Below, one piece after another: positions 2,592-46,802 of a stretch of 60,942 nucleotides of DNA. The stretch spans positions 1-60,942 of the forward strand of contig QEVT01000003.1 of the NCBI GenBank assembly GCA_003576755.1, given 5' to 3'. A program made the translations under genes and the position numbers. Positions within the stretch are counted from its first letter, which is position 1. Each line of letters opens with the position of its first letter. Source of the stretch: a bacterium (GTDB lineage: Bacteria > Chloroflexota > Anaerolineae > Epilineales > Epilineaceae). Under the pieces are notes generated by a model, which searched no databases, was not told the DNA's origin, and was given only the letters and a program-made list of their open reading frames with translations.

Positions 2592-4943
2592 ATGCCGCCC
2601 GCATCGTCCTTCGACCGGGTCCGGCCATGGGTCGAGCGAGCACGCGGCGCGGCCCGGGCCGCTGCCGATCGCGCCGCGCCGTTGGCCGGCGCGCTGCGGC
2701 CCGTCGGGAATGACTTGGCGTTGCGCGTCCGCCCTGGCATGCGGGCCGCGCGCACGTGGCTCGCCGTACCCGCCAACCTGCGGCGCGTGGGGCGTGTGGC
2801 GCTGCCGCTCCTCGTCGGCGCCGGCCTGCTCCTCCCTCCGATCTCGCTGTGGACCCGCCTGACCACGCTGGGCTACGGCAAGCTCCGCCCCGGACAGGAT
2901 GCGTCGGTCGCCGCCGACATCGACGGCGTCTTCTTCGAAGCCCGCGGACGGAGCATCTATCGCGCCGCGCGCGTCGACGTGTCCGCCGCCGGCGGCATGC
3001 CCCGCGGCGTGGGGCCGCTGCCCGTCGGCCGCGTCCAACTGACGCCGGTGCTGACCCTCGACATCCGCGGCCCGGCGCCGCGTGAAGCATGGATCGCGGC
3101 CCTGGTCGACGTCGGACCGGGCGGGCAGGCGTTCGTCGATCCGTACGGATGGGACGGCCAGGCCTGGCAATGGCTCCCGTTCCAGTTCGACGTCGCCAAC
3201 CGCATCCGGGTGCGCCTGCCGCTGCAGCGCTTCGTACCCCGCCACATCGTCATCACCCAGGCGGCGCGCGGAGCCACCGAGGTTTCGGCCGGCCTCTTGC
3301 CGCCCCCGGCCGCCCCGCCCGCCGCCATCGCGGAGATCCCGATCCTCGAGATGCGCGCCTACGGCATCGAGACGGACGACGGGCACGTCGTCGGGCAGCG
3401 GTTCCCGATCCCATCCCGCCGGGCACGGGTCTACGGCGTCGTCGACAACCTCGAGGGGCTGCGGGTGCGCAGCGACCTCGTCAACAACCTGCTGATGCAG
3501 CGCGAGGCGCGGCAGCGGCATCGCGACGCCCTCGTCAACCTCGTCCGCCGCGACGGGCTCGCCGGCATCGTGCTGGACTACCGCGGCATCGACGGCATGC
3601 TGCAGTCGGTCTACGCGGACTGGCTGAGGCGGCTGTCGTCCGACGTGCACCGGGCCGGCGGCGAGGTGTTCGTCACCGTGCCGATGCCCCGCCGCACGAG
3701 CACGGCCTGGGACGGCAGCCCGTACGCGTGGCATCTGCTGGCGCCCGAGGTCGACGGCGTCCGCGTGCTCCTGCCGATCGATGCCCCTCTGGAGACCGAA
3801 GCGCTGGATGCCATGGTCCGCTGGGCCCTCGGCTCGGTGCCGCGCGACAAGCTGCAGCTCGCGCTGCCCGTCCAGGGGCGCGACATCGTCGACGACACGG
3901 TCGCGCTCATCGGCTATGGCGATGCCCTGGCCAAGATCCTCGACATGGCGCGCTCGGACGCGCCCGGGCGCATCGACCCCGACGCCACGTCGGTCGTCGA
4001 GCTGCCGACCCTGCGGGCCGCGCAGCTCGGGCGAGATCCCGCCACCGGCATGTGGCGGTTCTACTATTGGGACGACAACCGGCGGCAGCACACCGTATGG
4101 CTCAACGATGCCGCCGGGCTCCAGCCGGCCTTCGAGATCGCCCGGACGTTTCACCTGAGCCGGATCGTCCTCGACGGCGTCGAAGCCGGCCTCGATCCGA
4201 ACCTCTGGCAGATGACCCAGGCGTTCATCGCCGACGGCGGGGCGGTGGCCCCCGCCGTCGACTATCACCTGCGGTGGCAGCTCGTCGACCAGGATGGCCA
4301 GGTCGTGCAGCAGGCCAGCCAATCGCTCGACCTGACCGCGTTCGAGCTCAAGGCGCCGAGCCGGCAGGGCATCTACCGCCTCAGCGTCAACCTCGTCACC
4401 ACCGACGATCGACTGGCCGCCGTCGGCGCATCCTCGGAGGTCAACATCGCCCCTGCGCCGCCTGTGGCAAGGGCCACACCCAACGTGCTGATCATCGTGC
4501 CCACACCGATGCCGGTCATCACGGCGCCGGCGCCCGCCGACGAGAGCCGGATCGACCGTGCGCCGGTGCGCATCGAGGACACGCCGTTGGAGGCCACCGC
4601 CGAGGCCGGGGCGCGCGTGGCGGCGGCCGAGGCGCCGTTGCGCTCAGAGCCGAGCGTGGACGGCGACATCCTCTCGACGCTGCGCATCGGCGAGTCGCTC
4701 GAGGTGATCGGCGAATCGCCGGACGGCGACTGGCTCGAGGTCAAGGTCATCGCCACCGGCATCCAGGGCTGGGTGCTCGGCGAGCTCATCGCGCTCGGCG
4801 GGGCCGCGTCCGACACGGGCGCCCTTCCGGACGACGCCCCGGCCGGCCGGACCGGCGCGGTGGGCACCGCGGAGCCGGCGCCCACCGCCCGCGCGACCGC
4901 GTCCCCTACCCCCGGTGGGCGCTCGGGAGATAGACCCGGCTGA
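2592..4943 (+). CDS. Membrane-anchored GH18-like TIM-barrel protein with C-terminal SH3b domain (probably non-catalytic)
   Basis: N-terminal hydrophobic segment; 'DGLAGIVLDYRG' at the GH18 DxxDxDxE site; 'VPRDKLQLALP' and 'HTVWLNDA' typical of GH18 spore-hydrolase-like proteins; 'LRSEPS...GDWLEV...GWV' SH3b. Confidence 0.6.
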   Translation: MPPASSFDRVRPWVERARGAARAAADRAAPLAGALRPVGNDLALRVRPGMRAARTWLAVPANLRRVGRVALPLLVGAGLLLPPISLWTRLTTLGYGKLRPGQDASVAADIDGVFFEARGRSIYRAARVDVSAAGGMPRGVGPLPVGRVQLTPVLTLDIRGPAPREAWIAALVDVGPGGQAFVDPYGWDGQAWQWLPFQFDVANRIRVRLPLQRFVPRHIVITQAARGATEVSAGLLPPPAAPPAAIAEIPILEMRAYGIETDDGHVVGQRFPIPSRRARVYGVVDNLEGLRVRSDLVNNLLMQREARQRHRDALVNLVRRDGLAGIVLDYRGIDGMLQSVYADWLRRLSSDVHRAGGEVFVTVPMPRRTSTAWDGSPYAWHLLAPEVDGVRVLLPIDAPLETEALDAMVRWALGSVPRDKLQLALPVQGRDIVDDTVALIGYGDALAKILDMARSDAPGRIDPDATSVVELPTLRAAQLGRDPATGMWRFYYWDDNRRQHTVWLNDAAGLQPAFEIARTFHLSRIVLDGVEAGLDPNLWQMTQAFIADGGAVAPAVDYHLRWQLVDQDGQVVQQASQSLDLTAFELKAPSRQGIYRLSVNLVTTDDRLAAVGASSEVNIAPAPPVARATPNVLIIVPTPMPVITAPAPADESRIDRAPVRIEDTPLEATAEAGARVAAAEAPLRSEPSVDGDILSTLRIGESLEVIGESPDGDWLEVKVIATGIQGWVLGELIALGGAASDTGALPDDAPAGRTGAVGTAEPAPTARATASPTPGGRSGDRPG

Positions 4944-6744
4944 CGCGTTCGACGATCCGGATGCGCAGGTCGAGCTTGACCGTCGGCGAGGCCGCCTGCA
5001 TGGCCGGGTTGTCGCGGTTCACCGCGCGCAGGACCACCGTAGGGGTGACCGAGCTGCCGGCCATCAGCGCGCCCCGGTCGCGCCGCATGCCATCGACGTC
5101 GACCTGCAGGCTCATCAGCGAGCTTGCGCCGGGGATCTGCGGCAGCGGCGTGCCCGTCAACCACGCTTCGTCGGACACCACTTCCCAGTTTCCCTGATTG
5201 AGGTGCGGGTTGCTGAGGAGCGCACGCGTCGACACCTCGGTGCCGTCGATCATCTGCTCCACCGGGTTGGGGGTCACGCGCATCACCCACGGCATGTTCT
5301 CGACCGCACGCTCGAAGTCCACGGCGCCGCATCCGAAGCGGTCGTTGCGGGGATAGCCGTGAGCGGTGCGGCCGTCGAACGCCGGCACCAGCGGCGGCAG
5401 CGACCGGTTGGCCGTCTCGCACAGCTTGTCCTCGATGTCCCAGACCGAGAGCGTCGGGTTGAGCGATCGCATGACCGCCACCACCCCGGCAACGTGGGCG
5501 GCGGCCAGCTCCGAGGGCACGCGGAACGCGCTGTTGATCTCCTTGTACTCACCGTCGGCGGTCAACCAGGTCGTCGAGAAGTCCTCGCCAGGCGCGGCGA
5601 TGTCGACCCAGTCCCCCCAGCTGGCATACGGTCGCATCTGGTACTGCGAGGCGAACGACTGGACCCCGATGACGTCGTCGAACGCCGCGGGGAACGCCGG
5701 TGGGTTGACGCCAAAGGTGTTCTTGTCGGGGCAGAACCACGCGGCCTGGCCGCACTCGCCGGCGCCGGCGACCACCGGCACGCCCTTGCGGCGCGCATAG
5801 GTGATGGCGTCCTGCATCCGCTGCAGGCCTGCGCTCGCGCCGTCGCGGTTGTAGAGCATGAAGCCGCCGATGACGATCACCTGCGCGCCGTTGTTCGCCG
5901 CGTAGCAGATCGCCCGGTTCAGGTACTCGCGCCGTCCGCCGATGCCCCAGTAGCCACCGTTGTGGTCGGGGTCGAGCTGCGGGTCCGGCCCAGGCAGCGG
6001 CACCCAAGCCCGGTACACGATCTTGAGCGGCATGATCCGGGCCCGCCACGACACCCCGGCGATCCCCCGGCCGTTGTTGGTCTCGGCCGCGGCGATGCCC
6101 GCCATGGCCGTTCCGCTCGGCGGCGCCGGAACGTCGAGCTGCGAAGGCGGCACCGGATTCGGATCGGCGTCGTCTGCGCCGAAGTCCCACCCGGCAACGT
6201 CGTCGACGAAGCCGTTCCGGTCGTCGTCGACCCCGTTGCCCGGCACCTCACCGGGATTCCGCCAGATCTTGCCCGCGAGGTCGGGGTGCGCGGTCTCGAC
6301 CCCGTCGGCGATGATCGCGATCGCCACATCGTCGCTGCCGAAGCTCGTTTCCCAAGCTTGCAGGGCGCCGATGGTCTGAAGGCTGGCCCGCTGGTATCGC
6401 CAGCGGAACAGCGTGTCGTTGGGCTGCGTGATGGACTGGATGCCGGCATCCAAGGGTCCGTCGTCGCCATCCACCGCGTCGAACGCGGCGGGTCCGTCCC
6501 CGCTCCCACCATCCACCCCGGTAGCGGGCGCCGGGGCTGCGGTGAAGGTATCGCTACGGCGAGCATCGCCCTGCTCCAGCCAGCCGGGCGAGCACACCGC
6601 GTCGTCGGTCGCCGACGGCGCGCCTCCCGGGGTCTCCGCCATCACCGTGGTCAGCGACAGCGCCAATAGGGTGCCCGCGCCGGCGGCGACCATGCGCCGG
6701 CCCGGGATCGACAAACCGCCAAACAAGCTCTCAACACACGACAT
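4906..6744 (-). CDS. Secreted S8 (subtilase) family protein with degenerate catalytic triad; C-terminal YLP tag
   Basis: AGAGGA SD before ATG 6744; signal peptide; HPDL, 'NPGEVPGNGVDDDRNGFVDDVAGWDF', 'NNGRGIAGV', 'VDIAAPG' subtilase hallmarks. Confidence 0.85.
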   Translation of the reverse strand: MSCVESLFGGLSIPGRRMVAAGAGTLLALSLTTVMAETPGGAPSATDDAVCSPGWLEQGDARRSDTFTAAPAPATGVDGGSGDGPAAFDAVDGDDGPLDAGIQSITQPNDTLFRWRYQRASLQTIGALQAWETSFGSDDVAIAIIADGVETAHPDLAGKIWRNPGEVPGNGVDDDRNGFVDDVAGWDFGADDADPNPVPPSQLDVPAPPSGTAMAGIAAAETNNGRGIAGVSWRARIMPLKIVYRAWVPLPGPDPQLDPDHNGGYWGIGGRREYLNRAICYAANNGAQVIVIGGFMLYNRDGASAGLQRMQDAITYARRKGVPVVAGAGECGQAAWFCPDKNTFGVNPPAFPAAFDDVIGVQSFASQYQMRPYASWGDWVDIAAPGEDFSTTWLTADGEYKEINSAFRVPSELAAAHVAGVVAVMRSLNPTLSVWDIEDKLCETANRSLPPLVPAFDGRTAHGYPRNDRFGCGAVDFERAVENMPWVMRVTPNPVEQMIDGTEVSTRALLSNPHLNQGNWEVVSDEAWLTGTPLPQIPGASSLMSLQVDVDGMRRDRGALMAGSSVTPTVVLRAVNRDNPAMQAASPTVKLDLRIRIVERVSRVYLPSAHRG

Positions 6745-29406: not shown

Positions 29407-29410
29407 GGGA

Positions 29411-30757: not shown

Positions 30758-31182
30758 CGCGGCGCCGCCTGGTCGGAGGGTTGCGCCTGGATGAGCTGGC
30801 TCAGCCCGGCGAGCACGCCCGGCGCGGTCGCGCCCTGCTTGAGCTGCGTCCCGAGCTGGACCAGCAGGTCGCCGAGGTTGAGGCGATCGACCTTCTCGGC
30901 CGTCAGCTTCTCGGTCGACTGCCGCAACTCCGCCCGCAGCCGCTCGTCATCCTCGCGCGCCTCGGCGCGAAGCGCCTGCACGCGCCGGGCGGTGTCGGCC
31001 TCGAGCTCGGCGTGCGCTGTCCGCAGGCGTTCCAGCTGCTGCTGGAGGCGCTCGACGTCGGCCAGCAAGTTCTGGAACCGCTGGTCGTAATCCCGCATCT
31101 GCGGCCCGAAGATGATGTCACGGATCCGCTCGACGTCCGGGTCGGCCGCGGGCACCCCCGGGTCGTTGCCGCGTGCTGCCAT
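30754..31182 (-). CDS. Small coiled-coil protein
   Basis: 'VERIRDIIFGPQMRDYDQRF' then heptad-rich helix, 'KVDRLNLGDLL'; GTGA overlap with next gene. Confidence 0.8.
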   Translation of the reverse strand: MAARGNDPGVPAADPDVERIRDIIFGPQMRDYDQRFQNLLADVERLQQQLERLRTAHAELEADTARRVQALRAEAREDDERLRAELRQSTEKLTAEKVDRLNLGDLLVQLGTQLKQGATAPGVLAGLSQLIQAQPSDQAAPR

Positions 31183-31307
31183 GTCCCCCCCTGTGGTCAT
31201 CGTGCAGGCGATGGCGGTGGTTCGCGCCGACGCCGGCCGCACGCCGAAAGGTGCTCTGTACGGGCAGGCGCCGCGCAGGTCGGCGCGCGCACAACGTCGG
31301 CGTGCGT

Positions 31308-33593: not shown

Positions 33594-36332
33594 ATGCTCC
33601 CGACGCGCTTCCGCCGCTCCTCCAACCATCGCCCGCGCCTTTGCCGCCGGCGGGTGCGGATCGCGGGCATCGCCGTCGTCGCCGGAGTCGTGGCGCTCGC
33701 CGTCGCCGCCCGGTGGCTCGTCGCCGACCTCCCCGCCCCGGGGGCCCTGGTCACCCGCGGCTCGCCCGACACCACCAAGATCTACGACCGCCACGGCACG
33801 CTGCTCTTCGAGGTGCTCGACCCGCACGCCGGGCGGCGGACGCGCGTGGCCTTGGAAGACCTGCCCCCGCACGTGGTGGGCGCCGTCATCGCGGTCGAAG
33901 ACGCCGGGTACTACCGGCACCCCGGCGTCGACGTGCGTGGCGTGGCCCGCGCGGCGTGGCATCTGCTGCGGCACCGCCGGATCGTCTCGGGCGGGAGCAC
34001 CATCACCCAACAGCTTGCGCGCGAGCTGTTGATGGACCCGGCCGAGCAGTCGGAGCGCTCGGCCCGGCGCAAGGCACGCGAGATGGTGCTGGCGCTGCGC
34101 ATCACACGCGCCTTCGACAAGGATGCGATTCTTGAGATGTACCTCAACGAGGTGTACTTCGGCCAGCTCGCGTACGGCATCGAGGCGGCGGCGGCGACCT
34201 ATTTCGGCAAGCCCGCCCGCGAGCTCGACCTCGCCGAGGCCGCGCTCTTGGCCGGCCTGATCCAGTCGCCGGCAGCCTACAACCCGCTCGTCGACGTCGA
34301 CGCGGCGCGCGCGCGCCAGCGCGTCGTGCTCGACCTGATGGTCAGGCACGGCCGGGCCGGACGCGAGGCAGCACACCTGGCTGCGGCCGAGCCGCTGCGG
34401 TTCACGGGGGACGGGGCGCCGCTCGTGGCGCCGCACTTCGTCACGTGGGTGCGCGAACAGCTCGAGGCGCGGTACGGCCCCCAGGCCGTGCACGCGGGCG
34501 GCCTGCACGTCGTCACGTCGCTCGACCTCGACCTGCAGCGGCGGGCCGAGGCCATCGTCGCCACCCGGATGGCCGAGCTGCAGCGGCCGGCGCCCGGCAA
34601 GCCCGACCACCACGCGTCGAGCGCCGCCCTGGTCGCCCTCGACCCCTCCTCGGGGCAGGTGTGGGCGATGGTCGGCAGCGCCGACTACGGCGACGCCGCG
34701 ATCGACGGCGCGGTCAACGTCGCGCTGGCGCGCCGCCAGCCCGGCTCGTCGATCAAGCCCATCACGTACGCGGCCGCCTTCGGTGCGAGGCGGCCGGACG
34801 CGGCGGATCGCGGCGGAGACGCGGGCAGCGTCCCCGACGACCGGGGGGGCGGCGCCGCAGGCCCGGACACGGCGGCCGACCCCCTCCCCTTCACACCGGC
34901 CACCGTCCTCTCCGACGTGCCGACCGCATTCCTGACCCGCGAGGGCGAGCCGTACCAACCGATGAACTACGACCGGATGTGGCACGGCCCGATCAGCCTG
35001 CGCCGTGCGCTGGCCACGTCGTCGAACCTGGTCGCGGTCAAGGTCCTGGACGCCGTCGGGCTCGAGGCCACGATCGACACGGCCGAGGCGCTCGGCATCA
35101 CCACGCTCGGCGACCGCGACCGCTATGGCCTGGCCCTGACGCTCGGCGGCGGCGAGGTCCGCCTGATCGAGCTGACGGCCGCCTTCGGGGGGCTTGCCAA
35201 CGGCGGGCGCCGCGTCATGCCCAACCCCATCCTCGCCGTGCTGGACGCCGAGGGCTTCCGTCGCGCACGGGCGGACGGAGGCGCCGGGCTGGCCGCGCTG
35301 GCGAACGTCCGGACCATCGGCGATGCACCGGTCGTCGACCCGCGCGTCGCCTGGCTGGTCACCGACATCCTGGCCGACGACCAGGCGCGGCTGCCGGCGT
35401 TCGGCGAGGGCAGCGTGCTGGCCATCGGCCGGCCGGCGGCGGCCAAGACCGGCACGACGACCGACTTTCGCGACAACTGGACCGTCGGGTACACGCCCGA
35501 CCTGGCCGTCGGCGTGTGGGTCGGCAACGCCGACAACAGCCCCATGGCGTACATCAGCGGCATCACCGGCGCGGGCCCGATCTGGCACGACGTCATGCAG
35601 GCCGCGCACCGCGGCCGCCCCGCCCGACCGTTCGTCCGGCCCGACGGCCTCGTGCGCGTCGAGGTGTGCACGACCAGCGGTCGCCTGCCGACAAGCGCCT
35701 GCCAGCGGCGCGCGCCCGAGTGGTTCATCGCGGGTACCGAGCCGCGCACCTTCGACACCTCCTACCGATCCGTCGCGATCGACGCCGCCACCGGGCTGGC
35801 ATGGGCCGCGGGCTGTGCCGGCCCGCGCGTCGAGCGGGTCTTCCGAAGCCTGCCGCCGGACGCTCAGGACTGGGGGCGCCAGGCCGGCATCCGCCCGCCG
35901 CCGGACGAGACATGCCTCGGGCAGGCGGTGGCCGAGGCGAGCGTGGACATCGGGCGCGGAGCCGGCCCCCGGTTCGGCGACGACGCCGGCGACCCGGATC
36001 GCGACACCGGCGCCGCGCCGGCCCTCGTCGTGACCCGGCCGGCGCCCCGCAGCACGTTCGCGCTGACCGCGCAGCTCCCGGGACGGTTCCAGCGGATCGA
36101 GCTGGCCGCTCGCCCCGACCGCGCCGTGCGCCTGCGTCACGTCGAGCTGTGGGTCGACGGGCGGCCCATCGCCACGGTGCGCCGCCCTCCGTACCGCGCG
36201 TTGTGGCCGCTCGCCCTGGGCGACCACACCGTGGAGGCCGTCGGGACGACGCTCGACGGGCGGCAAGTGCGCAGCGCGGCGGTCGAGATCACCGTGCATC
36301 CCGATGCCATCGCTCAGGCTGCGCCACCGTGA
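33594..36332 (+). CDS. pbpC: Penicillin-binding protein 1C-like (transglycosylase + transpeptidase + C-terminal Ig)
   Basis: VEDAGYYRH, GGSTITQQL, RKARE; SSIK (SxxK), SSN, KTG; directly upstream of alpha-2-macroglobulin; TATAAT at 33582-33587. Confidence 0.88.
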   Translation: MLPTRFRRSSNHRPRLCRRRVRIAGIAVVAGVVALAVAARWLVADLPAPGALVTRGSPDTTKIYDRHGTLLFEVLDPHAGRRTRVALEDLPPHVVGAVIAVEDAGYYRHPGVDVRGVARAAWHLLRHRRIVSGGSTITQQLARELLMDPAEQSERSARRKAREMVLALRITRAFDKDAILEMYLNEVYFGQLAYGIEAAAATYFGKPARELDLAEAALLAGLIQSPAAYNPLVDVDAARARQRVVLDLMVRHGRAGREAAHLAAAEPLRFTGDGAPLVAPHFVTWVREQLEARYGPQAVHAGGLHVVTSLDLDLQRRAEAIVATRMAELQRPAPGKPDHHASSAALVALDPSSGQVWAMVGSADYGDAAIDGAVNVALARRQPGSSIKPITYAAAFGARRPDAADRGGDAGSVPDDRGGGAAGPDTAADPLPFTPATVLSDVPTAFLTREGEPYQPMNYDRMWHGPISLRRALATSSNLVAVKVLDAVGLEATIDTAEALGITTLGDRDRYGLALTLGGGEVRLIELTAAFGGLANGGRRVMPNPILAVLDAEGFRRARADGGAGLAALANVRTIGDAPVVDPRVAWLVTDILADDQARLPAFGEGSVLAIGRPAAAKTGTTTDFRDNWTVGYTPDLAVGVWVGNADNSPMAYISGITGAGPIWHDVMQAAHRGRPARPFVRPDGLVRVEVCTTSGRLPTSACQRRAPEWFIAGTEPRTFDTSYRSVAIDAATGLAWAAGCAGPRVERVFRSLPPDAQDWGRQAGIRPPPDETCLGQAVAEASVDIGRGAGPRFGDDAGDPDRDTGAAPALVVTRPAPRSTFALTAQLPGRFQRIELAARPDRAVRLRHVELWVDGRPIATVRRPPYRALWPLALGDHTVEAVGTTLDGRQVRSAAVEITVHPDAIAQAAPP

Positions 36333-36448: not shown

Positions 36449-39400
36449 ATGAACATCCAGCCCAGCCGAACGCCCGGCCTCCCCGGCCGCCCCTTCCGCG
36501 GTCTCGCGCTCGCCGCCGCGCTCGCGGCCATCCTCGCCCCGCTGGCGGCGTGCGGGCCGAAGGCGCGCGTCAACGAGTCGACGCTCCCGGTCGATGCCGA
36601 CGGGGTCATGATCGCCAGCCGGCCCGACCTTCCGGAGCGCGGCGTGGGCGTGGCGTCATTGGCCGTGTTCCCGCAGGTCGACACCCCGCTGGCGGTCACG
36701 CAGACCCAGCCCGAGGATGGCGCGGACGGCGTCGCGGGCGGCAAGGACGAAGCGCGCATCGTCGTGCAGTTCAACCACCCCGTCGTCCCGCTGGTGTCGG
36801 TCGACGACCAGGCCGGCCTGCCCGCGGCCGCGACGGTCACGCCGGCCATCGCCGGCAAGGGCGAGTGGCTCAACACGTCGACGTGGATCCTGACGCCGGA
36901 CGGCGACCTGCCGCCCGCGACGCGGTTCACGGTGTCGGTCGACGCGGACCTGACCGACATCCTGGGCGGCAAGCTCGCCGAGCCCGTCCGGTTCAGCTTC
37001 GTCACCGCCGCCCCGGCCGTCGTGCGGACGTACCCCGAGGACGGCAGCGTCGATGCCGGGGCCACACAGCCCATCACGGTCACGTTCAGCCAGGCGATGG
37101 ACCGGGCCTCGGCCGAGGGAGCGTTCCGCGTGCATCCGGCCGACCGGCCCGGCGAGACCGTGCCGGGCACGTTCCGATGGTCGGGCAACGACATGGGCTT
37201 CCTGCCGGGCCGCGCCCTGGCGCGCGGCGCCGCGCACGTGGCCACCGTCGCCGCCGGCGCCCGCGCGGCCACCGGCGAGGCCGGCCTGGCCGCGGACCAC
37301 GCGTGGCGCTTCACGACCGCGCCGCTGCCCGTCCTGGTCCGGACCACCCCGGCGGACGGCACCCAGAAGTCGCCCCACCTTCGCCACGAGTCGCTCAAGC
37401 TCGTCTTCAACACCCCGATGCGCACCGACGGCGTCACGGTCACGGTGCAGCCGACGATCACCAACCTCTCGGTCTACGCCTACGACGGCCGGGAAGCCTC
37501 GGTCAACGGGGGCTGGCTGGCCTCCACCGCCTACACCGTGACGGTCAAGGCCGAGTCGGAATCACGCTTCGGCGACGCGCTCGGCGAGGACCGCGTGATC
37601 CGGTTCACCACCGCCGAGATCGAGCCGTCGCTGTGGCTCAAGTCCACCGGGCGGTTCAGCGTCTACGACGCCGCGCGCCCGCCGCTGGCCTTCGTCGATG
37701 CCATCAACGTCGAAGCGGCCGATGTCGCCGTGTACAACGTCGACCGCGCGGCCTTCCTCCGGATGACGACGACCTCGGACCGCTGGAGCGCCTGGGACTC
37801 GTATCGGCCCGCCGAGGGCAACCTCGTCCGCCGGTGGACGGCGAGCACGCAGGCGCCGCTCGACACGGCGCGGCGCATCTCGGTGACGCTCGGCGCGGGC
37901 GCCGGCGGCGCCATCGAGCCGGGGCTGTACTACGTCCGGGTCACGTCCGACGCCGCGGCGGACCGCGACAACCGCATGATCTTCCTGGCCACCGCCGTCA
38001 ACCTGACCATCAAGCACAGCTGGGACGAGATCCTGGTGTGGGCGACCGACCTGCGCACCGGCAAGCCGGTGGCCGGCCTGCCGATCGACCTGTACGACCA
38101 GGACACCGAGCCGCTCGCCAGCGGCCGGACCGACCGCGACGGCGTGTACCGCGCCGGGGTGTCGGAGAAGGACGGCGACGCCGCGCTCGTCGCCGTCAGC
38201 GAGTCGGGCGGCCGCATCGTGGCCGCCGCCAGCGCCGAGTGGACCGAAGGGATCGACCCGTGGGCGTTCAACCTGCCCTACAGCGGCTACCGCCAGCCCC
38301 GCTACGCCGCGCTCTACACCGACCGGCCGATCTACCGCACCGGCCAGACCATCTACTACCGCGGCGTCGTGCGCGACGACGATGACGCCGTCTACGCGCT
38401 GCCGAACGTCGACGAGGTGTTCGTGACGGTGCGCGACCCGAACTACGAGGAGGTGCTCAAGACGACGCTGCGCGTCGGGGACTTCGGCACGGTGGCCGGC
38501 GAGATCCCGCTGGCGCCCGGCGCGCGGCTGGGGGCCTACACCATCGACATGGCGGTGCGCCGGGACGACGACCCCGAGGCGTACGACAGCATCGCCAGCG
38601 TCTCGTTCACGGTCGCGGCGTACCGCAAGCCCGAGTTCCAGGTGACCGTGTCGACCGACCAGCCCGACTACGCCAACGGCGAGACCGTCAAGGTCACGGC
38701 CGACGCCGCCTACTTCTTCGGCGGGCCCGTGGCGGGCGCCGCGGTCCAGTGGCGGCTCTTGACCGACGACTACTTCTTCAACCCGCCCGACGTCGAGGGT
38801 TGGTGGGACTGGATCGACTACGACCTGACCGAGCAGCGCTACTACGACGCCCAGGGCGAGGTGGTGCGCGAGGGCGAGGGCACGCTCGATGCCGACGGCA
38901 AGCTGACGTTCGAGATCCCGGCCGACCTCGGCGAGGCGCCGCTCAGCCAGGTGTTCACCATCGACGTCGAGATCACCGACATCAACCACCAGGCCGTGGC
39001 GGGGCGGACGAGCGCGGTGGTCCACAAGGGCAACGTGTACGTCGGGCTGCGGCCCGCGCGCTACGTCAGCGGGCGCGGCGAGCCGGCAGCCTTCGACGTC
39101 CTGGCCGTCGACCCCGACGGCCGGCCGGTGCCCGGCCAGGCCGTCGACCTCGCGTTCCAGCAGCGCACGTGGTACAGCGTCAAGGAGAAGCGCGAGAACG
39201 GCGAGTTCTACTGGACCAGCGCCTACACCGACACGCTGGTCTCCGAGGCCACCGTGACCACCGACGACGACGGCGCGGCGACGGCGTCGTTCACCCCAGC
39301 GGAGGGCGGCGTGCACCGGCTGGTCGCGGTCGCGCGCGACGCCGCCGGCAACGAGGTCCGGAGCGCCACCTACGCGTGGATCACCAGCGGCCGCTTCGTC

Positions 39401-42244
39401 AACTGGCGCCAGGAGAACAACGACCGGATCGCGCTCGTCGCCGACAAGAAGCTGTACGCGGTCGGCGACGTCGCCAAGGTGCTGGTGCCCGCGCCGTTCG
39501 CCGGCGCGGAGGCGCTGGTCACCGTCGAGCGGGGCAAGCTCCGCGACGTGCGACGGGTGGCGCTGCCCGGCAACAGCGAGACCCTCGAGATCCCGATCCG
39601 CCCGGACTACACGCCCAACGTCTACGTGTCGGTGGTCCTGGTCAAGGGCGTCGGGCCCGACAGCCCGCTGCCGCAGCTCAAGGTCGGCTACACCAACCTG
39701 CAGGTGTCGACCGACACCAAGATCCTGGACATCGCCATCCGCCCCGACAGGGACGAGCCCTACCGCCCGCGCGACACCGTGCGGTACGCCGTCGACGTGA
39801 CCGACCACACCGGCAAGCCCGTGCGCGCCGAGCTGTCGGCGGCGCTGGTCGACAAGGCGATCCTGTCGCTGGCCCCGGACCCGTCGACATCGCTGGTGAA
39901 CGCCTTCTACGGCCAGCGGATGCTCGGGGTGGGCACCGGCGCGTCGCTGACGGAGTTCGCCGACCGGCTCAACCAGGAGCTGGCGGCCGAGAAGAAGGGC
40001 GGCGGGGGCGGCCCCGCCGATGCCGAGGGCACCGTGCGGCGGCTGTTCCGCGACACGGCGTTCTGGAGCCCGTCCGTGGTCACCGGGGCCGACGGCAAGG
40101 CCTCGCTCGAGGTCGAGCTGCCCGACAACCTGACGACGTGGAACCTCAACCTGCGCGGCGTCACCGGGGCCGACACGCTGGTGGGCACGGGGGTCAACGA
40201 GATCGTGAGCACCCGGCCCGTGCTCGTGCGGCCGGTCGTGCCGCGCTTCTTCGTCGTCGGCGACGCCGCGCAGATCGAGACCGTGGTCAACAACGCCAGC
40301 GGGGCGGCGGTCGACGTGGCGGTGTCGCTGGCTGCCACCGGCCTGGGCATCGCCGACCCCGCGCCGCAGGACCTCTCGATTCCGGACGGCGGCCGGGCCA
40401 AGGTCGTCTGGCAGGTCGAGGTGCCCGCCACGGGCCTCAACCCTCCCACCGTGCCGGATGCGTTCGGCTCGGTGACCGTGCAGATGGGCGCCACCGGCGG
40501 CGGCCACACCGACAGCGTCGAGCTGCAGATCCCGGTGTACCAGTTCAGCGAGCCACAGGTGGTGGCCACGGCGGGCGAGGTCGGCACGGGCGAGACGCGG
40601 GTGACCGAACGCATCCAGCTCCCCGAACGGGTCGACACGTCGCAGGGCGACCTGTCGGTGCGGCTCGCGCCGTCGCTGGCGGCGGCGAGCATCGCCACGA
40701 TCGAGTGGCTGGAGCCGCACCCCCAGGAGTGCCCGGGCGGCGCCGTCAGCCGCCTGGTGCCGAACGTGGCCACGCTTCTGGCGCTCCAGAAGCTCGACGT
40801 GGCCGGCGACCGGCGCGCGGCGCTGAAGGCAGCGCTCGACGCCGACGTGCCCGAAACGCTGCAGAAGCTCTACGCCTGGCAGAACAACGACGGCGGCTGG
40901 GCGTGGTGCGGGGCGGATCGGAGCAACGCGTGGATCACGGCCTACGCGCTCCTGGGCCTTCAGCTGGCGCGCGACGCGGGCTTCGAGCTGGGCGACGAGA
41001 CGCGCGCACGGGCGGCGGACTTCTTGCAGCAGGAGCTCAACCGCGCCGTCGACGTCGAGGAGGGCTGGGACCTCGACCAGCGGGCGTTCATCGTGTGGGT
41101 GCTGGCACGCCAGGACGACGTGCCGGCCAGCCGGGCCGTGACGCTGTACGAGCGCCGGGCCGGGCTGAAGCTCTATGCCCGGGCGTTCCTGGCGCTGGCG
41201 CTGGCCGAGATCGACGCGGCCGGCCAGAAGAGCCGGATCGACACGCTGCTGGCCGACCTCGGCGGCAAGGCCGTGGTCAGCGCCACGGGCACGGCCTGGG
41301 AGGAGGACGAGCCGAGCCACCGCGACATGAGCACCGACCTGCGCACCTCGGCCATCGTCGTCATGGCCCTGAGCCAGCTCGACCCCGGGAACCCCAACCT
41401 CGTCAACGGCGTCCGCTGGCTGATGGCGCAGCGCGTCGAGGACCACTGGGCCACGCGGCAAGAGGACGCCTGGGCCGTGCTGGCCCTGACGGCCTACATG
41501 CAGGCCACCGGCGAGCTCGAGGGTCGCTACGCGTACCACGTCGAGCTGAACGCCGCCGAGCTCGGCAAGGGCGAGGTCGACGCGCGCAACATCGACGTCC
41601 CGGTCACGCTGCGGGCGCCGGTGGCCGACATGAAGGTCGGCGGTGCCAACGACCTCGTCCTGCGCCGCGACGGCCCGGGCGTGCTGTACTACGCCACCCA
41701 CCTGCGGCTGTGGCAGCCGGTCGACGCGCTCGAGCCGGTGGCGCGCGGCATCGTCCTCGGTCGGCAGTACTTCGCGGTGGACCGCAAGACGTTCAAGGCG
41801 ACCGGGGATGCCGTGGACACGGCGAACATCGGCGACATCGTGCAGGTCAAGCTGACGCTGATCGCCGAGAGCCCGCTGCATTACGTCAAGGTCGAGGACC
41901 CGATCCCCGCCGGATTCGAGATCGTCGACACGTCGCTGCAGACGACGAGCGCGGCGGCCACCGGCCCTCGAATGGAGGAGGTGGCCGATGACGGGGCGGA
42001 TGCCGAGGACCGGCCGTGGTGGGCCCGCTGGTGGTGGTCGTACTGGGTGGACAGCCAGCTCCTCGACCACAAGGCGGTGCTCTTCGCGTCGCACCTCGAG
42101 CCCGGCACGTACGAGTACACCTACCTCCTGCGCGCCAGCACCGCGGGCAACTACCACGCCATCCCGGCCATGGCCGAGCAGGAGAGCTTCCCCGAGGTGT
42201 TCGGACGCAGCGCGGGAGGGGTCTTCACGATCGAAGGAGAGTGA
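36449..42244 (+). CDS. Bacterial alpha-2-macroglobulin family lipoprotein with N-terminal Ig-like repeats
   Basis: AGGAG SD; lipobox LAAC; TDRPIYR, AYRKPEF, VRRLFRDTAFW, LPDNLTTW, QNNDGGW, PEVFGRS. Confidence 0.92.
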   Translation: MNIQPSRTPGLPGRPFRGLALAAALAAILAPLAACGPKARVNESTLPVDADGVMIASRPDLPERGVGVASLAVFPQVDTPLAVTQTQPEDGADGVAGGKDEARIVVQFNHPVVPLVSVDDQAGLPAAATVTPAIAGKGEWLNTSTWILTPDGDLPPATRFTVSVDADLTDILGGKLAEPVRFSFVTAAPAVVRTYPEDGSVDAGATQPITVTFSQAMDRASAEGAFRVHPADRPGETVPGTFRWSGNDMGFLPGRALARGAAHVATVAAGARAATGEAGLAADHAWRFTTAPLPVLVRTTPADGTQKSPHLRHESLKLVFNTPMRTDGVTVTVQPTITNLSVYAYDGREASVNGGWLASTAYTVTVKAESESRFGDALGEDRVIRFTTAEIEPSLWLKSTGRFSVYDAARPPLAFVDAINVEAADVAVYNVDRAAFLRMTTTSDRWSAWDSYRPAEGNLVRRWTASTQAPLDTARRISVTLGAGAGGAIEPGLYYVRVTSDAAADRDNRMIFLATAVNLTIKHSWDEILVWATDLRTGKPVAGLPIDLYDQDTEPLASGRTDRDGVYRAGVSEKDGDAALVAVSESGGRIVAAASAEWTEGIDPWAFNLPYSGYRQPRYAALYTDRPIYRTGQTIYYRGVVRDDDDAVYALPNVDEVFVTVRDPNYEEVLKTTLRVGDFGTVAGEIPLAPGARLGAYTIDMAVRRDDDPEAYDSIASVSFTVAAYRKPEFQVTVSTDQPDYANGETVKVTADAAYFFGGPVAGAAVQWRLLTDDYFFNPPDVEGWWDWIDYDLTEQRYYDAQGEVVREGEGTLDADGKLTFEIPADLGEAPLSQVFTIDVEITDINHQAVAGRTSAVVHKGNVYVGLRPARYVSGRGEPAAFDVLAVDPDGRPVPGQAVDLAFQQRTWYSVKEKRENGEFYWTSAYTDTLVSEATVTTDDDGAATASFTPAEGGVHRLVAVARDAAGNEVRSATYAWITSGRFVNWRQENNDRIALVADKKLYAVGDVAKVLVPAPFAGAEALVTVERGKLRDVRRVALPGNSETLEIPIRPDYTPNVYVSVVLVKGVGPDSPLPQLKVGYTNLQVSTDTKILDIAIRPDRDEPYRPRDTVRYAVDVTDHTGKPVRAELSAALVDKAILSLAPDPSTSLVNAFYGQRMLGVGTGASLTEFADRLNQELAAEKKGGGGGPADAEGTVRRLFRDTAFWSPSVVTGADGKASLEVELPDNLTTWNLNLRGVTGADTLVGTGVNEIVSTRPVLVRPVVPRFFVVGDAAQIETVVNNASGAAVDVAVSLAATGLGIADPAPQDLSIPDGGRAKVVWQVEVPATGLNPPTVPDAFGSVTVQMGATGGGHTDSVELQIPVYQFSEPQVVATAGEVGTGETRVTERIQLPERVDTSQGDLSVRLAPSLAAASIATIEWLEPHPQECPGGAVSRLVPNVATLLALQKLDVAGDRRAALKAALDADVPETLQKLYAWQNNDGGWAWCGADRSNAWITAYALLGLQLARDAGFELGDETRARAADFLQQELNRAVDVEEGWDLDQRAFIVWVLARQDDVPASRAVTLYERRAGLKLYARAFLALALAEIDAAGQKSRIDTLLADLGGKAVVSATGTAWEEDEPSHRDMSTDLRTSAIVVMALSQLDPGNPNLVNGVRWLMAQRVEDHWATRQEDAWAVLALTAYMQATGELEGRYAYHVELNAAELGKGEVDARNIDVPVTLRAPVADMKVGGANDLVLRRDGPGVLYYATHLRLWQPVDALEPVARGIVLGRQYFAVDRKTFKATGDAVDTANIGDIVQVKLTLIAESPLHYVKVEDPIPAGFEIVDTSLQTTSAAATGPRMEEVADDGADAEDRPWWARWWWSYWVDSQLLDHKAVLFASHLEPGTYEYTYLLRASTAGNYHAIPAMAEQESFPEVFGRSAGGVFTIEGE

Positions 42245-42270: not shown

Positions 42271-42301
42271 GGAGGTGAGGCCCGCACCGGACCTCACCTC
42301 C
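42271..42301. terminator. Hairpin between convergent genes
   Basis: GGAGGTGAGG / CCTCACCTCC stem. Confidence 0.5.
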
Positions 42302-42323
42302 CGCACATGCTCGACAAACCGTC

Positions 42324-42836: not shown

Positions 42837-43007
42837 GGTTGACTCCTGTGTCGAAGGGGGGCCCGCCGTCGGGTCACGCCCGGTGAGCGGGTGAGCATAG
42901 CGAGCCGGTCGACAGGGGTCAACCGGCTCGCGGGCCGTCACACGACGCCAGCGGCGCATGCAAGCCCGCAGCGTCCGGATGCATCCAAGAGGGCGGAGGT
43001 CAGACGC

Positions 43008-46000
43008 ATGCACCAGGACTCGACCGGTCGAATCGACGGCAGCCTCGCGATCCGCCTTGGCCGCATGTGCCCGAGCGGGCCGCCGCGCCGCGGCTCTCGC
43101 TTCCCGTGGTTGGCGGCGCTGCTCATGGCGGTCGTTGCCTCGCCGTTCATCGCACCGGCAAGGCCGGGCCACGGCCAGCCGGGCACGGCACCATCGGCCG
43201 ACCGGCCGGCATCGACCGGCGCTGCGCGCGTCGCCTACCTGCCTCTGGCCTTCAACCACGGGTTGCTCGGCGTCGTCGGCCCGGTCCGGGCCAACCGTGC
43301 CCGCGGCCTGCACGACGCACCGTTCGACCTCGTCCTTTCGTCCAACACCGCCGGCGCCACGATTCGCTACACGCTCGACGGAAGCCTGCCAACCGAGGCC
43401 CACGGCCAACGCTACACCGGCCCGATCACGATCGACCGCACGACCACGCTCCGCGCCGCGGCGTTCGCCCCCGGCTACGCGCCCAGCCCGATCGAAACAC
43501 GCTCGTTTCTGTTCCCGACCGACGTCGCGGCGCAATCGAACGAGGTCGCGCTTTCGGCCGGGCTGCCGCTCACCTGGGGCATCGTCCCGGACGGCCGCTG
43601 GGCGGGACAGGCGGTGCCGTCGGACTACGGTGTGCGCGCGGAGATCATCGCGCGCCATGGCGACACGCTGGCCGCCGCCCTGCGGTCGCTGCCGAGCGTC
43701 AGCATCGCGATGGACCCTGACGACCTGTTCGACCCGGCGACCGGGATCTACAGCAACCCGACGCGGTTCGGCGACGCCTGGGAGCGGCCGGCGTCGATCG
43801 AGTGGCTCGGCGTCGACGGCGGGCCTGACCTGCAGATCGACGCCGGCGTGCGCATCGCGGGCGGCTACAGCCGGCGGCCGGAGGCGACGCCCAAACACTC
43901 GCTCTCGCTGCGCTTCCGGTCGCGGTATGGCGCCTCGCGCCTGCGATACCCCGTGTTCAAGGACTCGGCGGTGCAGTCGTTCGACACGCTGCGCCTGCGC
44001 GCGGGCCAGGCCGACCACTTCAACTTCGCGGCGCACAAGGCGCAGTACCTCCACGACCAGTGGGGACGCGACACCCAGGCCGACATGGGGTGGCCCACCG
44101 CCCACGGCGCGTTCGTCCACGTCTACCTGAACGGCCTGTACTGGGGCATCTACAACGTCGCCGAGGAACCGACGGCGGCGTTCGCCGCGAGCCATCTCGG
44201 CGGCGACGAGGACGACTGGGACGTCGTGCGCGACGGCGAGCTCGTCGACGGCCGGTGGTCGGTGGCGGTCGAGGACGGCGACGCGCGTGCGTTCGAGGCG
44301 ATGCTCGACGTGGCCCGGCAGGCGCCCGAGCCGGATCCGATGGACCGGGCCCGCTTCGAGCAGTTGGCCCGCTGGCTGGACCTCCCGCAGTTCATCGACT
44401 ACCACCTGATCCAGATCCATGCCGCCAACTGGGACTGGCCCAACAAGAACTGGCGCGCGGCCCGCAACCGCGATCTCGGCAACGGCTTCCAGTTCTTCGT
44501 CTGGGACATGGAGCACACGACGGCGCTGCGCGACGACCCCGACGACAAGCTGTGCGTCTCGGTGCGCGATCCACGCACCGGCGCCTGCGGCTTCAAGGCC
44601 GACACGCTCGGCGTGCAGGACCTGCACGGCTGGCTCATGCACTTCCCGGACTACCGCATCGCGTTCGCGGACCGTGTCCAGCGGCACTTCTTCGCCCCGA
44701 CCGTGGCCTCCGCCGACGCGCGCTACGCCGGCGCGCTGGCGCCCGCCGCGACCACCCGGCGCTACGCGCGCCTGGCCGACATGATCGAGCCCGCCATCGT
44801 CGCCGAGTCCGCCCGCTGGTCGACGGCCGACCCCACCGCCTTGCACGCCATCGACTTCCCGAAGGTGTGGGAGCGCTACCACGACCGCTGGCCCTACGGC
44901 CCGCAAACCCCCGACCACTGGCGGCTCGAGCGCGACCGCGTGCTCACGCGCCACTTCCCCGATCGCACCGCGGTGGTGCTCCAGCAGCTCTGCGACGAGG
45001 GCCTCTTCCCGCCGGTCGCGCCGCCGGCCCTCACCGTCGACGGCGACCCGCTCGAGCCGCAGCAGATGGCGCTGACGCCGAGCGCGGTCGGCTGCCGCGA
45101 GACCATCGTCGGCACCGCCGTGTACTACACGCTCGACGGCAGCGACCCCCGCACCCCTTGGTCGGGCGATCCCGCCGTGCCGTGGTCTGGCGAGCCCAGC
45201 CCGACCGCCGCTGCCTATCGGGGCACGGTCAAGCTCCCGGGCTACGCGCATGTGCGCGCCCGCGCCGCCGTGCACGTCGACGGCCGCTGGCGGTGGAGCG
45301 CGCAGGTCGAGGCACGGCTCGGGCATCCCCGGCTCGCGGTGTCCGAGATCATGTACCACCCTGAGGCCGGCGGCGTGGAGTTCATCGAATTGCACAACCG
45401 CGAGCCGGCCACCGTCGACATCTCGGGGCTGCGCGTCTCGGATGCGGTGCGCTTCACAGCGCCCGAGGGAGCGACGGTGGCGCCCGGCGGGCGGTTCGTG
45501 ATCACCGCCGACGCGACGGCATTCCGGGCACGTTACCCCGGGATCACGCCCGACGGCGTGTTCGACGGCAAGCTCGACAACGCTGGCGAGACCATCGTGG
45601 TCACCGACGCCGGCGGTCTCCGGCTCGCCGAGGTGACGTATCGCAGCGACGGCCTCTGGCCCCGCGCGCCGGACGGCTGGGGGTGGTCGCTGGTCCCCCG
45701 CGGCTACGACGTCGATCTGGACGACCCCGAGGCGTGGCGCGCCAGCGTCGGGCGCGGCGGCGCGCCGGGGGCGGCCGACCCCGACCCCATGGCACCCGAA
45801 GTCGTCGTCAACGAGGTCCTGGCGGACAGCACCGAGCCCCTCGAGGACGCCATCGAGCTGCACAACCTCGGCGTCCGACCGGCGGACATCGGCGGATGGT
45901 TCCTCAGCGACGACGCGTCGTCACCGCTGAAGTTTCGGATCCCCGCAGGGACGGTCGTGGCGCCGGGAGGCTACACGGTCTTCTACGAGGGCGAGTTCGG

Positions 46001-46802
46001 CACGGGGGCACGCCGGTTCGCGCTCAGCGCCGACGGCGAGTCGGTCGTGCTCACGGCTGTCGATGCCGGCGGCGCGCTCACGGGCGTCATGCGCGGGGTG
46101 GATTTCGGGGCCGCTGCCGAGGGGGTCTCGCTGGGTCGACAGCCCACGAGCGCCGGGGTGGACTTCGTGCGGCTGGCACGCCGCTCGTTCGGCGTCGACG
46201 CCCCCGCGACGGTGGCCGACTTCCGCCGCGGGACCGGGGCGCCGAACGCCCCGGCCCATGTCGGGCCGATCGTCATCAACGAGCTGATGGTGGATCCGGC
46301 CCCGAGCGACATGGAGTACGTCGAGCTGCACAACCGCACCGACGCCCCGGTGGACCTGTCCGACACCGACGGGTTCGGCCGATGGCGGCTGCAGGACGGG
46401 ATCACCCTCACGCTGCCGGCCGGCCTGGTCCTGCCGGCCGGCGGCTTTGCGCTCGTCGTCGGCGGCGATCCCGACCGGTTCCGGCAGCTCCATGCCGTGC
46501 CGCCTGACGTCGCCGTGCTCGGCCCCTTCGACGGCAAGCTGGGCAACGACGGCGACACGGTGGTGTTGGCGCGCGTGGCCGACGACGACACGTGGCGCGC
46601 CGAGGACCGCGTCCGCTACCGCACCCGGCTCCCATGGCCCGTGGCGCCTGCGCGGGCCGGCACGGCGCTCGAGAGGCTCGCCCCCGACGGCTACGGAAAC
46701 GAACCGCACAACTGGGCAGCCCGGCGTGTGGGCGGCACGCCCGGGAGACCCAACACCCGGCTCACGTGGGCCTTCCTGCCGTGGGTGCGTGCCGGGGAGT
46801 GA
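43008..46802 (+). CDS. Secreted CotH-family kinase with FN3-associated domains and three lamin-tail-like domains; LP tags at both ends
   Basis: IRYTLDGS.P; VYLNGLYWGIY; NWDWPNKNW; WDME; repeated 'V.E.M..P...E.IELHN...D.SG'; RVAYLPLAF and WAFLPWV. Confidence 0.85.
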   Translation: MHQDSTGRIDGSLAIRLGRMCPSGPPRRGSRFPWLAALLMAVVASPFIAPARPGHGQPGTAPSADRPASTGAARVAYLPLAFNHGLLGVVGPVRANRARGLHDAPFDLVLSSNTAGATIRYTLDGSLPTEAHGQRYTGPITIDRTTTLRAAAFAPGYAPSPIETRSFLFPTDVAAQSNEVALSAGLPLTWGIVPDGRWAGQAVPSDYGVRAEIIARHGDTLAAALRSLPSVSIAMDPDDLFDPATGIYSNPTRFGDAWERPASIEWLGVDGGPDLQIDAGVRIAGGYSRRPEATPKHSLSLRFRSRYGASRLRYPVFKDSAVQSFDTLRLRAGQADHFNFAAHKAQYLHDQWGRDTQADMGWPTAHGAFVHVYLNGLYWGIYNVAEEPTAAFAASHLGGDEDDWDVVRDGELVDGRWSVAVEDGDARAFEAMLDVARQAPEPDPMDRARFEQLARWLDLPQFIDYHLIQIHAANWDWPNKNWRAARNRDLGNGFQFFVWDMEHTTALRDDPDDKLCVSVRDPRTGACGFKADTLGVQDLHGWLMHFPDYRIAFADRVQRHFFAPTVASADARYAGALAPAATTRRYARLADMIEPAIVAESARWSTADPTALHAIDFPKVWERYHDRWPYGPQTPDHWRLERDRVLTRHFPDRTAVVLQQLCDEGLFPPVAPPALTVDGDPLEPQQMALTPSAVGCRETIVGTAVYYTLDGSDPRTPWSGDPAVPWSGEPSPTAAAYRGTVKLPGYAHVRARAAVHVDGRWRWSAQVEARLGHPRLAVSEIMYHPEAGGVEFIELHNREPATVDISGLRVSDAVRFTAPEGATVAPGGRFVITADATAFRARYPGITPDGVFDGKLDNAGETIVVTDAGGLRLAEVTYRSDGLWPRAPDGWGWSLVPRGYDVDLDDPEAWRASVGRGGAPGAADPDPMAPEVVVNEVLADSTEPLEDAIELHNLGVRPADIGGWFLSDDASSPLKFRIPAGTVVAPGGYTVFYEGEFGTGARRFALSADGESVVLTAVDAGGALTGVMRGVDFGAAAEGVSLGRQPTSAGVDFVRLARRSFGVDAPATVADFRRGTGAPNAPAHVGPIVINELMVDPAPSDMEYVELHNRTDAPVDLSDTDGFGRWRLQDGITLTLPAGLVLPAGGFALVVGGDPDRFRQLHAVPPDVAVLGPFDGKLGNDGDTVVLARVADDDTWRAEDRVRYRTRLPWPVAPARAGTALERLAPDGYGNEPHNWAARRVGGTPGRPNTRLTWAFLPWVRAGE

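Follow-up and report, generated by a model that had tools for sequence, protein, structure and literature searches.

A short Leu-Pro tag without a membrane anchor on exported proteins of some Chloroflexota: a candidate envelope-docking signal

The closest described counterparts of the element analyzed here are the C-terminal sorting signals and terminal anchoring modules shared by many different exported proteins. Dockerin, SLH, LysM and WxL anchors fold into domains of 45-160 residues whose receptors are known, and type IX secretion (T9SS) needs an outer membrane and uses an enzyme named PorU. The T9SS C-terminal domain (CTD) has been described as a folded β-sandwich that comprises ~80-100 residues and undergoes cleavage by a sortase-like mechanism (PMC4560394). 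The tags of the PEP-CTERM/exosortase, PGF-CTERM/archaeosortase, GlyGly-CTERM/rhombosortase and MYXO-CTERM/myxosortase systems are all described as tripartite, being made up of a signature, a transmembrane (TM) helix and a basic cluster (10.1101/2023.06.07.544157; PMC11980579). We analyzed a stretch of 60,942 nucleotides (hereafter the window; contig QEVT01000003.1 of assembly GCA_003576755.1) from a bacterium of the Chloroflexota family Epilineaceae, in which a nine-residue peptide with a Leu-Pro core, here termed the YLP tag, recurs on seven proteins. By analogy, this element would in its mode of action be closest to the sorting tags at C-termini (LPXTG, PEP-CTERM and their kin) or, if it acts by docking, to a miniature dockerin; it has neither the TM helix and basic tail, nor the T-G, nor the folded domain that define these families.

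The genome containing the window is represented by an assembly of 4.41 Mb in 489 contigs (72% G+C, 82% complete), whose nearest named records are Anaerolineae/Anaerolineales metagenome-assembled genomes (MAGs; 79% identity for the dCTP deaminase and 89% for the subtilase). Our own gene caller, a codon log-odds model trained on the same genome, gave 3096 genes covering 88% of the bases, 2742 of them with a stop codon. The motif, which can be written as [R/K]-Φ-[Y/F/W/H]-L-P-Φ-Φ-x-[R/K/Q/N], closes more than 100 exported proteins in this genome. Among the genes with a stop codon, [FYWHC]LP begins 8-16 residues before the C-terminus 115 times (21, 20, 11, 15, 12, 9, 11, 9 and 7 times at positions 8 to 16 from the end), as compared to ~2 per position expected from its internal density and to a flat position profile in decoys. 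Furthermore, an iterated position-specific scoring matrix (PSSM) spanning offsets -5 to +7 (0 being the aromatic position) recovered tails at a score of at least 14 in 120 of 2581 called genes versus 3 of 16745 open reading frames (ORFs) in non-coding frames of the same genome; in terms of proteins, 121 carry a tail against 2.1 expected from the internal match rate. These counts are lower bounds because the assembly is fragmented. The YLP motif is a genuine recurrent tag on exported proteins, far beyond chance.

A logo of 126 tails collected with a regular expression, in which L and P are present in all 126 by construction, shows a P/T/A-rich approach followed by R(-4), any residue, R/K(-2), V/A/L/I(-1), the aromatic position (0), L and P, and thereafter W/A/L/V(+3), A/L/V(+4), any residue, R/Q/N/K(+6) and G/R(+7). 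At position 0 the residues are Y (53), F (37), W (20), H (13) and C (3), so that of the Y/F/H/C set given in a preliminary description of the window Y and F are common and H and C belong to a minority. Offset +4 is dominated by A (48), L (31) and V (20), with T and G six times each, and offset +5 by R (19), G (18), L (13) and A (13). V or M can replace the Leu in tails found by PSSM or in orthologues. The conserved part amounts to ~9-13 residues, and the span from the aromatic residue to the C-terminus is 8-18 residues. Past +7 there are zero to ~10 further residues, rich in G/R/A/P, with tail lengths decaying from 8 residues upward and a final Arg in 50 of the 126 (529 of 2742 overall). In most carriers no functional element comes after the motif; the residues that follow are few, variable and compositionally unconstrained.

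Selection on the tag takes place at the level of the protein and not of the DNA. All synonymous codons occur in the tails, with an excess of CTG-CCG that mostly tracks the general Leu-Pro dicodon bias of the genome, and DNA similarity of any kind is found in only 44 of 7140 pairs of tail regions. In orthologues from the same genus all six C-terminal tails of the window are kept while other residues are replaced (H by Q at 0, L by M at +1) and the Pro is retained. Stop-codon usage of tagged genes is ordinary. Codon bias, a repeat cassette, a TM segment hidden by frameshift or readthrough, and odd stop usage were each checked as DNA-level causes and rejected.

A genome-wide count of the tag against signal-peptide status, envisaged in the preliminary description, likewise speaks for a mark of exported proteins: signal-peptide-like N-termini are present in 68 of the 91 tagged proteins whose 5' ends are complete versus 820 of 2163 others (odds ratio 4.8), as judged by a crude heuristic that extends upstream to tolerate errors in start-codon calls. 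Two earlier heuristics gave 43 of 94 versus 473 of 2160 (Kyte-Doolittle, too crude) and 49 of 91 versus 691 of 2163 (n-regions still lost to start calls). Pfam matches were obtained for 13 of 20 randomly drawn carriers and are all of extracytoplasmic kinds, namely cupredoxin, M14, PD40, LVIVD, Big_9, VWA, CBM_4_9, SBBP, cohesin, PETase-like and FG-GAP. A stretch with more than 40% Pro plus Thr (P/T) lies just upstream in 38 of the 126 tagged proteins versus 50 of 2579 overall. Among 71 S8 homologues from other phyla whose frame reaches a stop codon, ~22 end, by eye and with no model applied, in a T9SS-CTD-like 'G-x-Y-F-x-R-L ... V-V-L-x-R' pattern, and four Heimdallarchaeota S8 homologues have a terminal TM tail. 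The YLP tag thus sits at the place where such relatives bear recognized sorting domains.

Some carriers have unusual layouts. Four proteins (on contigs C466, C351, C142 and C438) contain a T9SS-CTD/FlgD-Ig-like 'YFYRLEVVN..G....GP' segment and then a YLP tail; three of these have an anti-sigma-factor-like N-terminus and no signal peptide. The protein encoded at C362:2544-5588 (+) of the same assembly carries the motif twice, 89 residues before its end and again at the end itself, with a P/T/A-rich stretch in between.

The motif is not confined to C-termini. At a PSSM score of at least 16 there are 43 internal matches, as compared to 0, 6, 0, 1 and 1 in five window-shuffled proteomes, so that the internal and N-terminal occurrence first noticed in the window holds for the genome at large. 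Most of these matches lie 195-204 residues before the end and are followed by '...R-E-x-C ... D-V-V-L-V-L-D', which marks a C-terminal VWA domain. Our own hidden Markov model (HMM) detected 129 VWA domains in 84 proteins of this genome, and [YFWH][LIVMF]P plus a Cys precedes 51 of 55 C-terminal VWA domains versus 6 of 67 other VWA domains. An alignment of 46 such modules, assembled from genome loci, has invariant P18, C25, D32, D38, S40, M43, L90, D143, G172 and C212 and an S42 conserved in at least 90%; in other words, the motif Pro, the Cys seven residues later, the Cys at the domain end and the residues of the metal ion-dependent adhesion site (MIDAS) are invariant or nearly so. The module has the features of the VWA fold, with a Pfam VWA match of E=1.9e-27, a DxSxS MIDAS and an alternation of strands and helices in the AlphaFold2 model. 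In that model (mean pLDDT 92.9) most of the domain scores 94-98 and the motif stretch 65-74, and residues 11-30, which include the motif, have no secondary structure. The model therefore indicates that the motif is a flanking linear element and is not part of the predicted VWA fold. Many carriers of the module are ~1100 residues long, with a second, internal VWA domain and β-propeller-like N-terminal parts. Flags for a TAG inside two of the module matches proved to be natural gene ends.

Eleven further matches fall within the first 130 residues, several of them ~20-30 residues behind the signal peptide, including that of the CotH protein of the window. In some of these a Cys follows and then the first β-strand of a domain with a 'C-x-T-W-I-x-V-Q-N-x-G' signature. 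Thus, the motif can precede a Cys and a further folded domain, which is either the C-terminal VWA module or a CARDB-like domain.

The window itself shows all three placements (Table 1). The eight strings listed in the preliminary description were all recovered letter for letter in the genes named there, six at C-termini, one internally and one near an N-terminus. Its portrayal of the seven carriers as unrelated holds as far as the cargo is varied; nevertheless, the genes at 22093 and 25290 both encode Pfam VWA proteins, and the N-terminal domain of the product of gene 23665-25026, which has no Pfam family, matches our VWA model. Similarly, the protein labeled FN3 does contain fn3, and is more fully a CBM96/DNRLRE plus fn3 protein; its VHLP tail scores slightly below the threshold of 14. 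Signal peptides are plausible by eye on all seven, as had been claimed, with the crude heuristic as the only other guide. The subtilase tag lies directly behind a β-rich segment without a P/T linker, and in the CotH/LTD protein RVAYLPLAF comes ~30 residues past the hydrophobic signal segment. The 672-residue protein of gene 17100-19118 belongs to no Pfam or NCBIfam family, and no Pfam or NCBIfam model covers the C-termini and tails of the seven window proteins.

Table 1. Positions of the YLP motif and the motif-VWA module in the window. Each C-terminal tag is directly followed by the stop codon; the last column gives the C-terminus of the orthologue from the same genus.
Feature	Positions	Strand	Gene	Carrier and context	PSSM score	Orthologue C-terminus
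C-terminal tag SRVYLPSAHRG	4909-4941	(-)	4906-6693	Peptidase_S8 subtilase (Pfam S8)	23.4	IYLPSVQRRG
C-terminal tag WRACLPWLNNGLP	19077-19115	(+)	17100-19118	672-aa exported protein; after P/T linker	24.5	ACLPWLTNGSP
C-terminal tag EKVHLPAVVQTTRQ	20231-20272	(-)	20228-22036	CBM96/DNRLRE plus fn3 protein; weak instance	13.2	KIQLPIVGQNRR (Q for H at position 0)
C-terminal tag RHIYLPTLLKAWGLD	22096-22140	(-)	22093-23430	VWA protein (Pfam); after P/T linker	19.8	VYMPALLKTWGLD
C-terminal tag PGIFLPALLNGSGFQG	23668-23715	(-)	23665-25026	After P/T linker	21.5	IFMPALLNQGGF
Internal motif AAYLPALWK	25872-25898	(-)	25290-26996	Double-VWA protein; at P/T-linker end	18.9	
C-terminal module (linker end, motif, Cys, VWA with intact MIDAS, C-terminal Cys)	25293-25937	(-)		Own HMM		
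N-terminal motif RVAYLPLAF	43227-43253	(+)	43008-46802	CotH/LTD protein	15.9	
C-terminal tag TWAFLPWVRAGE	46764-46799	(+)	43008-46802	CotH/LTD/Fn3-associated protein	15.4	RIYLPVAAQR

Comparison with LPXTG signals reveals a C-terminal L-P core shared by many unrelated surface proteins, frequently preceded by a P/T-rich linker that in sortase substrates spans the wall; however, the YLP tag lacks T-G, the hydrophobic TM stretch and the retention tail, occurs also at internal and N-terminal positions, and does not appear to be tracked by sortase homologues in the few genomes compared. With the PEP-CTERM-type tags it shares the many-to-one and lineage-restricted pattern, a tiny Pro-containing signature and overlapping cargo families such as DNRLRE, but not the TM helix. 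Like the T9SS CTD it occupies the equivalent position on homologous S8 proteases and has no TM helix, yet it is only ~9 residues long and in the seven window proteins gives no match of the Por_Secre_tail/TIGR04183 type. The dockerin-cohesin system of cellulosomes, SLH, LysM and WxL likewise provide many enzymes with one terminal module behind a P/T linker for a common scaffold, whereas the YLP tag is a linear peptide only. Full-text literature searches, judged at the level of result summaries, returned no account of such a tag, and the portion seen of a preprint cataloguing sorting signals has no mention of Chloroflex- names (10.1101/2023.06.07.544157).

As the preliminary description had stated, the TM helix plus basic tail of LPXTG and PEP-CTERM signals is found after none of the motifs, and no TM segment lies hidden downstream through frameshift or readthrough: a hydrophobic open frame continues past the stop in 4 of 117 tagged versus 158 of 2344 other genes. 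Classic substrates coexist in the same genome, with ...LPPTG and ...LPATG each preceding a TM helix and RRRAR, and ...VPEP preceding a TM helix and RRRSR; these are the only two clear LPXTG-type and the one clear PEP-CTERM-type substrate seen. Because the tag has no TM helix or basic tail and separate classic substrates with that architecture are present, it does not belong to the tripartite signals of the sortase or exosortase type. The genome encodes three sortase homologues (PF04203) and one exosortase homologue, and no consistent adjacency of tagged genes to either kind of gene is seen in it. All five other genomes tested have 3-4 sortase homologues each, including one without tails in its 400-kb sample. 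One of the sortase homologues of the window's genome, at C109:2448-4292 (+), lies within a 614-residue ORF whose C-terminal part resembles BTAD/SARP activators, possibly as a fusion or a merged gene call.

To follow the tail across the phylum we scanned samples of 180-400 kb from one genome per family with the PSSM. A 400-kb sample from the same family had 11 tails plus 11 motif-VWA junctions, one from a sister family 2-3 tails, one from the same class (54% G+C) none, which in a sample does not equal absence, and one from another class (59% G+C) two (...VYLPLVARS and ...IYLPVVLR); a single 180-kb contig of a genome with 52% G+C had 6-8 (among them ...IYLPWASK, ...IFLPIAMKGE and ...VYLPVVGRN). 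A motif HMM, for which one of the searches tallied 61 genomes, gave 15-53 matches in the family of the window, 3-16 in sister families, 8-13 in certain genomes from four further families of the phylum and 0-5 in the remainder, which is noise (its level being ~1-5 per genome). These tallies are a rough guide that undercounts, with 3 matches in a genome having two clear tails per 400 kb and 11 where there are 6-8 per 180 kb. The tail [I/V]YLPWASK ends all six orthologues of one protein, from five Herpetosiphon records (H. aurantiacus DSM 785 among them) and a Chloroflexia MAG, with the P/T linker varying while the tail stays. Oscillochloris trichoides DG6 has a protein that ends in ...IYLPVVLR. 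The similar Chloroflexota tails mentioned in the preliminary description are thereby borne out by named records. As the orthologues of this O. trichoides protein in three relatives have decayed or variant tails (IYLLVVFR, YLYPMIPVGR and YLYPMILMNQVMP), the tag may be undergoing drift, or exist in a second dialect, in Chloroflexales. In 80 loci around S8 homologues, mostly of other phyla (1.25 Mb, 4658 ORFs), the sole match to the tail is from a close relative, and the 1.24 Mb that belong to other phyla gave none. On this thin taxon sampling the tag is judged to be lineage-restricted and patchy across the phylum Chloroflexota.

The motif-VWA module is concentrated in the family of the window, whose 16 other genomes each give 35 to at least 98 six-frame matches, as compared to 0-6 in 14 genomes of four sister families and 0-4 weak ones in 60 genomes sampled across the phylum. 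This family-specific burst is a striking expansion in its own right. We considered the VWA module as a general receptor for the tag, which is unlikely because tails occur where the module is nearly absent; in addition, the motif in cis was not confidently docked in the model.

In our best reading, which we hold tentatively, carriers dock on an envelope receptor through the motif, a linear label that would act regardless of its position in the chain. Docking is favored because the motif occurs at either end of a chain or between domains, because it is followed by nothing, by a functional-looking VWA domain or by a β-sandwich domain, and because the extension past +7 looks unconstrained. The argument for docking over cleavage from position-independence, already made in the preliminary description, is reasonable but indirect. 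It marks where a stalk or linker ends, on proteins that some Chloroflexota export through Sec or Tat, and the P/T linker would be a spacer. After export, we infer, a single conserved component of the envelope would recognize the motif outside the cytoplasm, and the motif would serve as an address label that tethers its carrier to a multilayered envelope through non-covalent binding of an extended peptide. An envelope of this kind, with a proteinaceous layer and an outermost layer, has been described for a member of the Caldilineae (PMC13319060). In the family of the window this label seems to have been coupled to the hugely expanded, disulfide-closed VWA module, which would act as an extra adhesive head beside the tether and not as the receptor.

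Several points weigh against docking. No receptor or enzyme was found among the candidates considered (sortase, exosortase and the VWA module), and we know of no bacterial surface anchor of about nine residues that acts non-covalently. An invariant core of two residues, like LP, is what one typically sees at sites recognized by enzymes (LPXTG, PEP and PGF), and the large many-to-one pattern and the types of cargo match those of processed sorting signals. Moreover, the extreme C-terminus is strongly preferred (~120 tails versus ~60-70 other placements), which pure docking does not require. Finally, the gene calls are home-made, the assembly is 82% complete in 489 contigs, and the signal-peptide heuristic is crude, with a background of 38%.

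A serious rival, to which we give somewhat less weight than to docking, is that the motif serves instead as the recognition and cleavage site of a dedicated extracytoplasmic endopeptidase or transpeptidase, that is, a sorting signal minus its membrane anchor. The residues past LP, be they the basic tail, the VWA domain or the rest of the chain, would then be a leaving group, and the upstream part would be released, matured or ligated to an acceptor in the envelope. In line with this, the core is very short and nearly invariant, resembles LPXTG with two or three hydrophobic residues and a base following, and is spread over more than 100 heterogeneous substrates per genome as in known sorting signals. 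Furthermore, homologous S8 proteases elsewhere bear cleaved sorting domains at the equivalent place, and for three sortase homologues and one exosortase homologue only two LPXTG-type and one PEP-CTERM-type clear substrates were recognized. Nevertheless, neither a TM segment nor any other retention element would keep the substrate at a membrane enzyme, and cleavage at an N-terminal motif would cut the entire protein loose from a short spacer. The VWA 'leaving group' retains an intact MIDAS and the conserved Cys pair in 46 of 46 copies and therefore looks functional. The equal presence of sortase homologues in a genome without sampled tails and the lack of consistent neighborhood with sortase or exosortase genes also argue, though not decisively, against processing by these enzymes.

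The composition of the tail raises another prospect, to which we give little credence, in which the motif is a generic interfacial anchor with a six-residue hydrophobic/aromatic core and basic flanks that partitions into the membrane's outer leaflet or sticks to an anionic wall polymer and has no specific partner protein. The aromatic residues at position 0 and the W at +3 (31 of 126), the enrichment of basic residues at -4, -2, +6 and +7, a net tail charge of at least 0 in 104 of 126 and the frequent terminal Arg noted above would all suit it. However, an invariant Pro and a Leu that hardly varies, both maintained between classes of the phylum, would not be required of such an anchor, and six hydrophobic residues with a central Pro make a weak membrane binder.

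We also find it hard to credit that the motif merely caps the N-terminus of the domain behind it or terminates a linker, with the short tails as truncated motif-VWA remnants without a targeting role. The motif does start the VWA-module model in 51 of 55 C-terminal copies, and in the window the VWA genes with a tail only adjoin the gene with the full module, to whose start their tails bear a resemblance (LPALLNGSG versus LPALWKSHC). Against this, tails occur in lineages nearly devoid of the module (two weak matches per genome in the Herpetosiphon-type family f33 and 3-4 in family f17), are conserved between orthologues and are about twice as numerous as modules, and the model does not pack the motif stretch against the VWA domain with confidence. 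An artefact, whether due to chance, to a high-GC composition, to a DNA element repeated at gene ends or to faulty gene calls, to which home-made calls and the abundance of L, P, R and A at 72% G+C might have given rise, is excluded by the controls, i.e. the near-empty decoy ORFs of like composition and their flat profile, the single match among the ORFs of the S8 loci, the scarcity of DNA similarity between tails, and the presence of tails in genomes of 52-59% G+C.

Of the other genes in the window, 33654-36332 (+) encodes an 892-residue protein that by eye is a PBP1C-type penicillin-binding protein, directly upstream of 36449-42244 (+), which encodes a 1931-residue bacterial alpha-2-macroglobulin (A2M) with MG, bait-region, TED and MG10 domains and no YLP tail. 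The pairing of pbpC with A2M is a usual one, of which these two genes would be an instance. Directly beside the four tagged VWA/fn3 genes is a run of cytoplasmic-looking regulators (27682-31200 (-), by eye), including a small Ras/MglA-like GTPase (28876-29406) and a histidine-kinase-like ATPase (27682-28875), both assigned by inspecting their translations. Toward the window's right end the predicted proteins suggest STAND-type regulators (47014-50350 (+) and 57398-60941 (-)), because the former region codes for an ATPase_2 plus TPR protein (47014-48996) and the product of gene 57398-59641 in the latter begins with 'TFLFTDVEGS', which reads like the start of an adenylate cyclase.

The YLP tag would add a kind of C-terminal sorting or anchoring signal that is missed by current Pfam and NCBIfam models. 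One doubtful but attractive possibility is a surface coat of the Chloroflexota's own, in which a TM-less nine-residue label, able to stand at either terminus or between domains, plugs hundreds of different exoproteins into one conserved receptor of the multilayered envelope. If this were true, the combination of label and adhesive VWA domain in one family, with its 35 to at least 98 copies per genome, would amount to a cellulosome-like, peptide-based display system without a counterpart among the sortase, exosortase, T9SS and dockerin systems. The tag would predict surface-displayed proteins, offers a peptide bait for the receptor or enzyme and is testable in cultured Herpetosiphon and Oscillochloris. 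Its recognition matters for the annotation of MAGs from soil, mats and wastewater and, being present on ~4-6% of called genes in this genome, it would provide the main handle on the organization of the Chloroflexota envelope.

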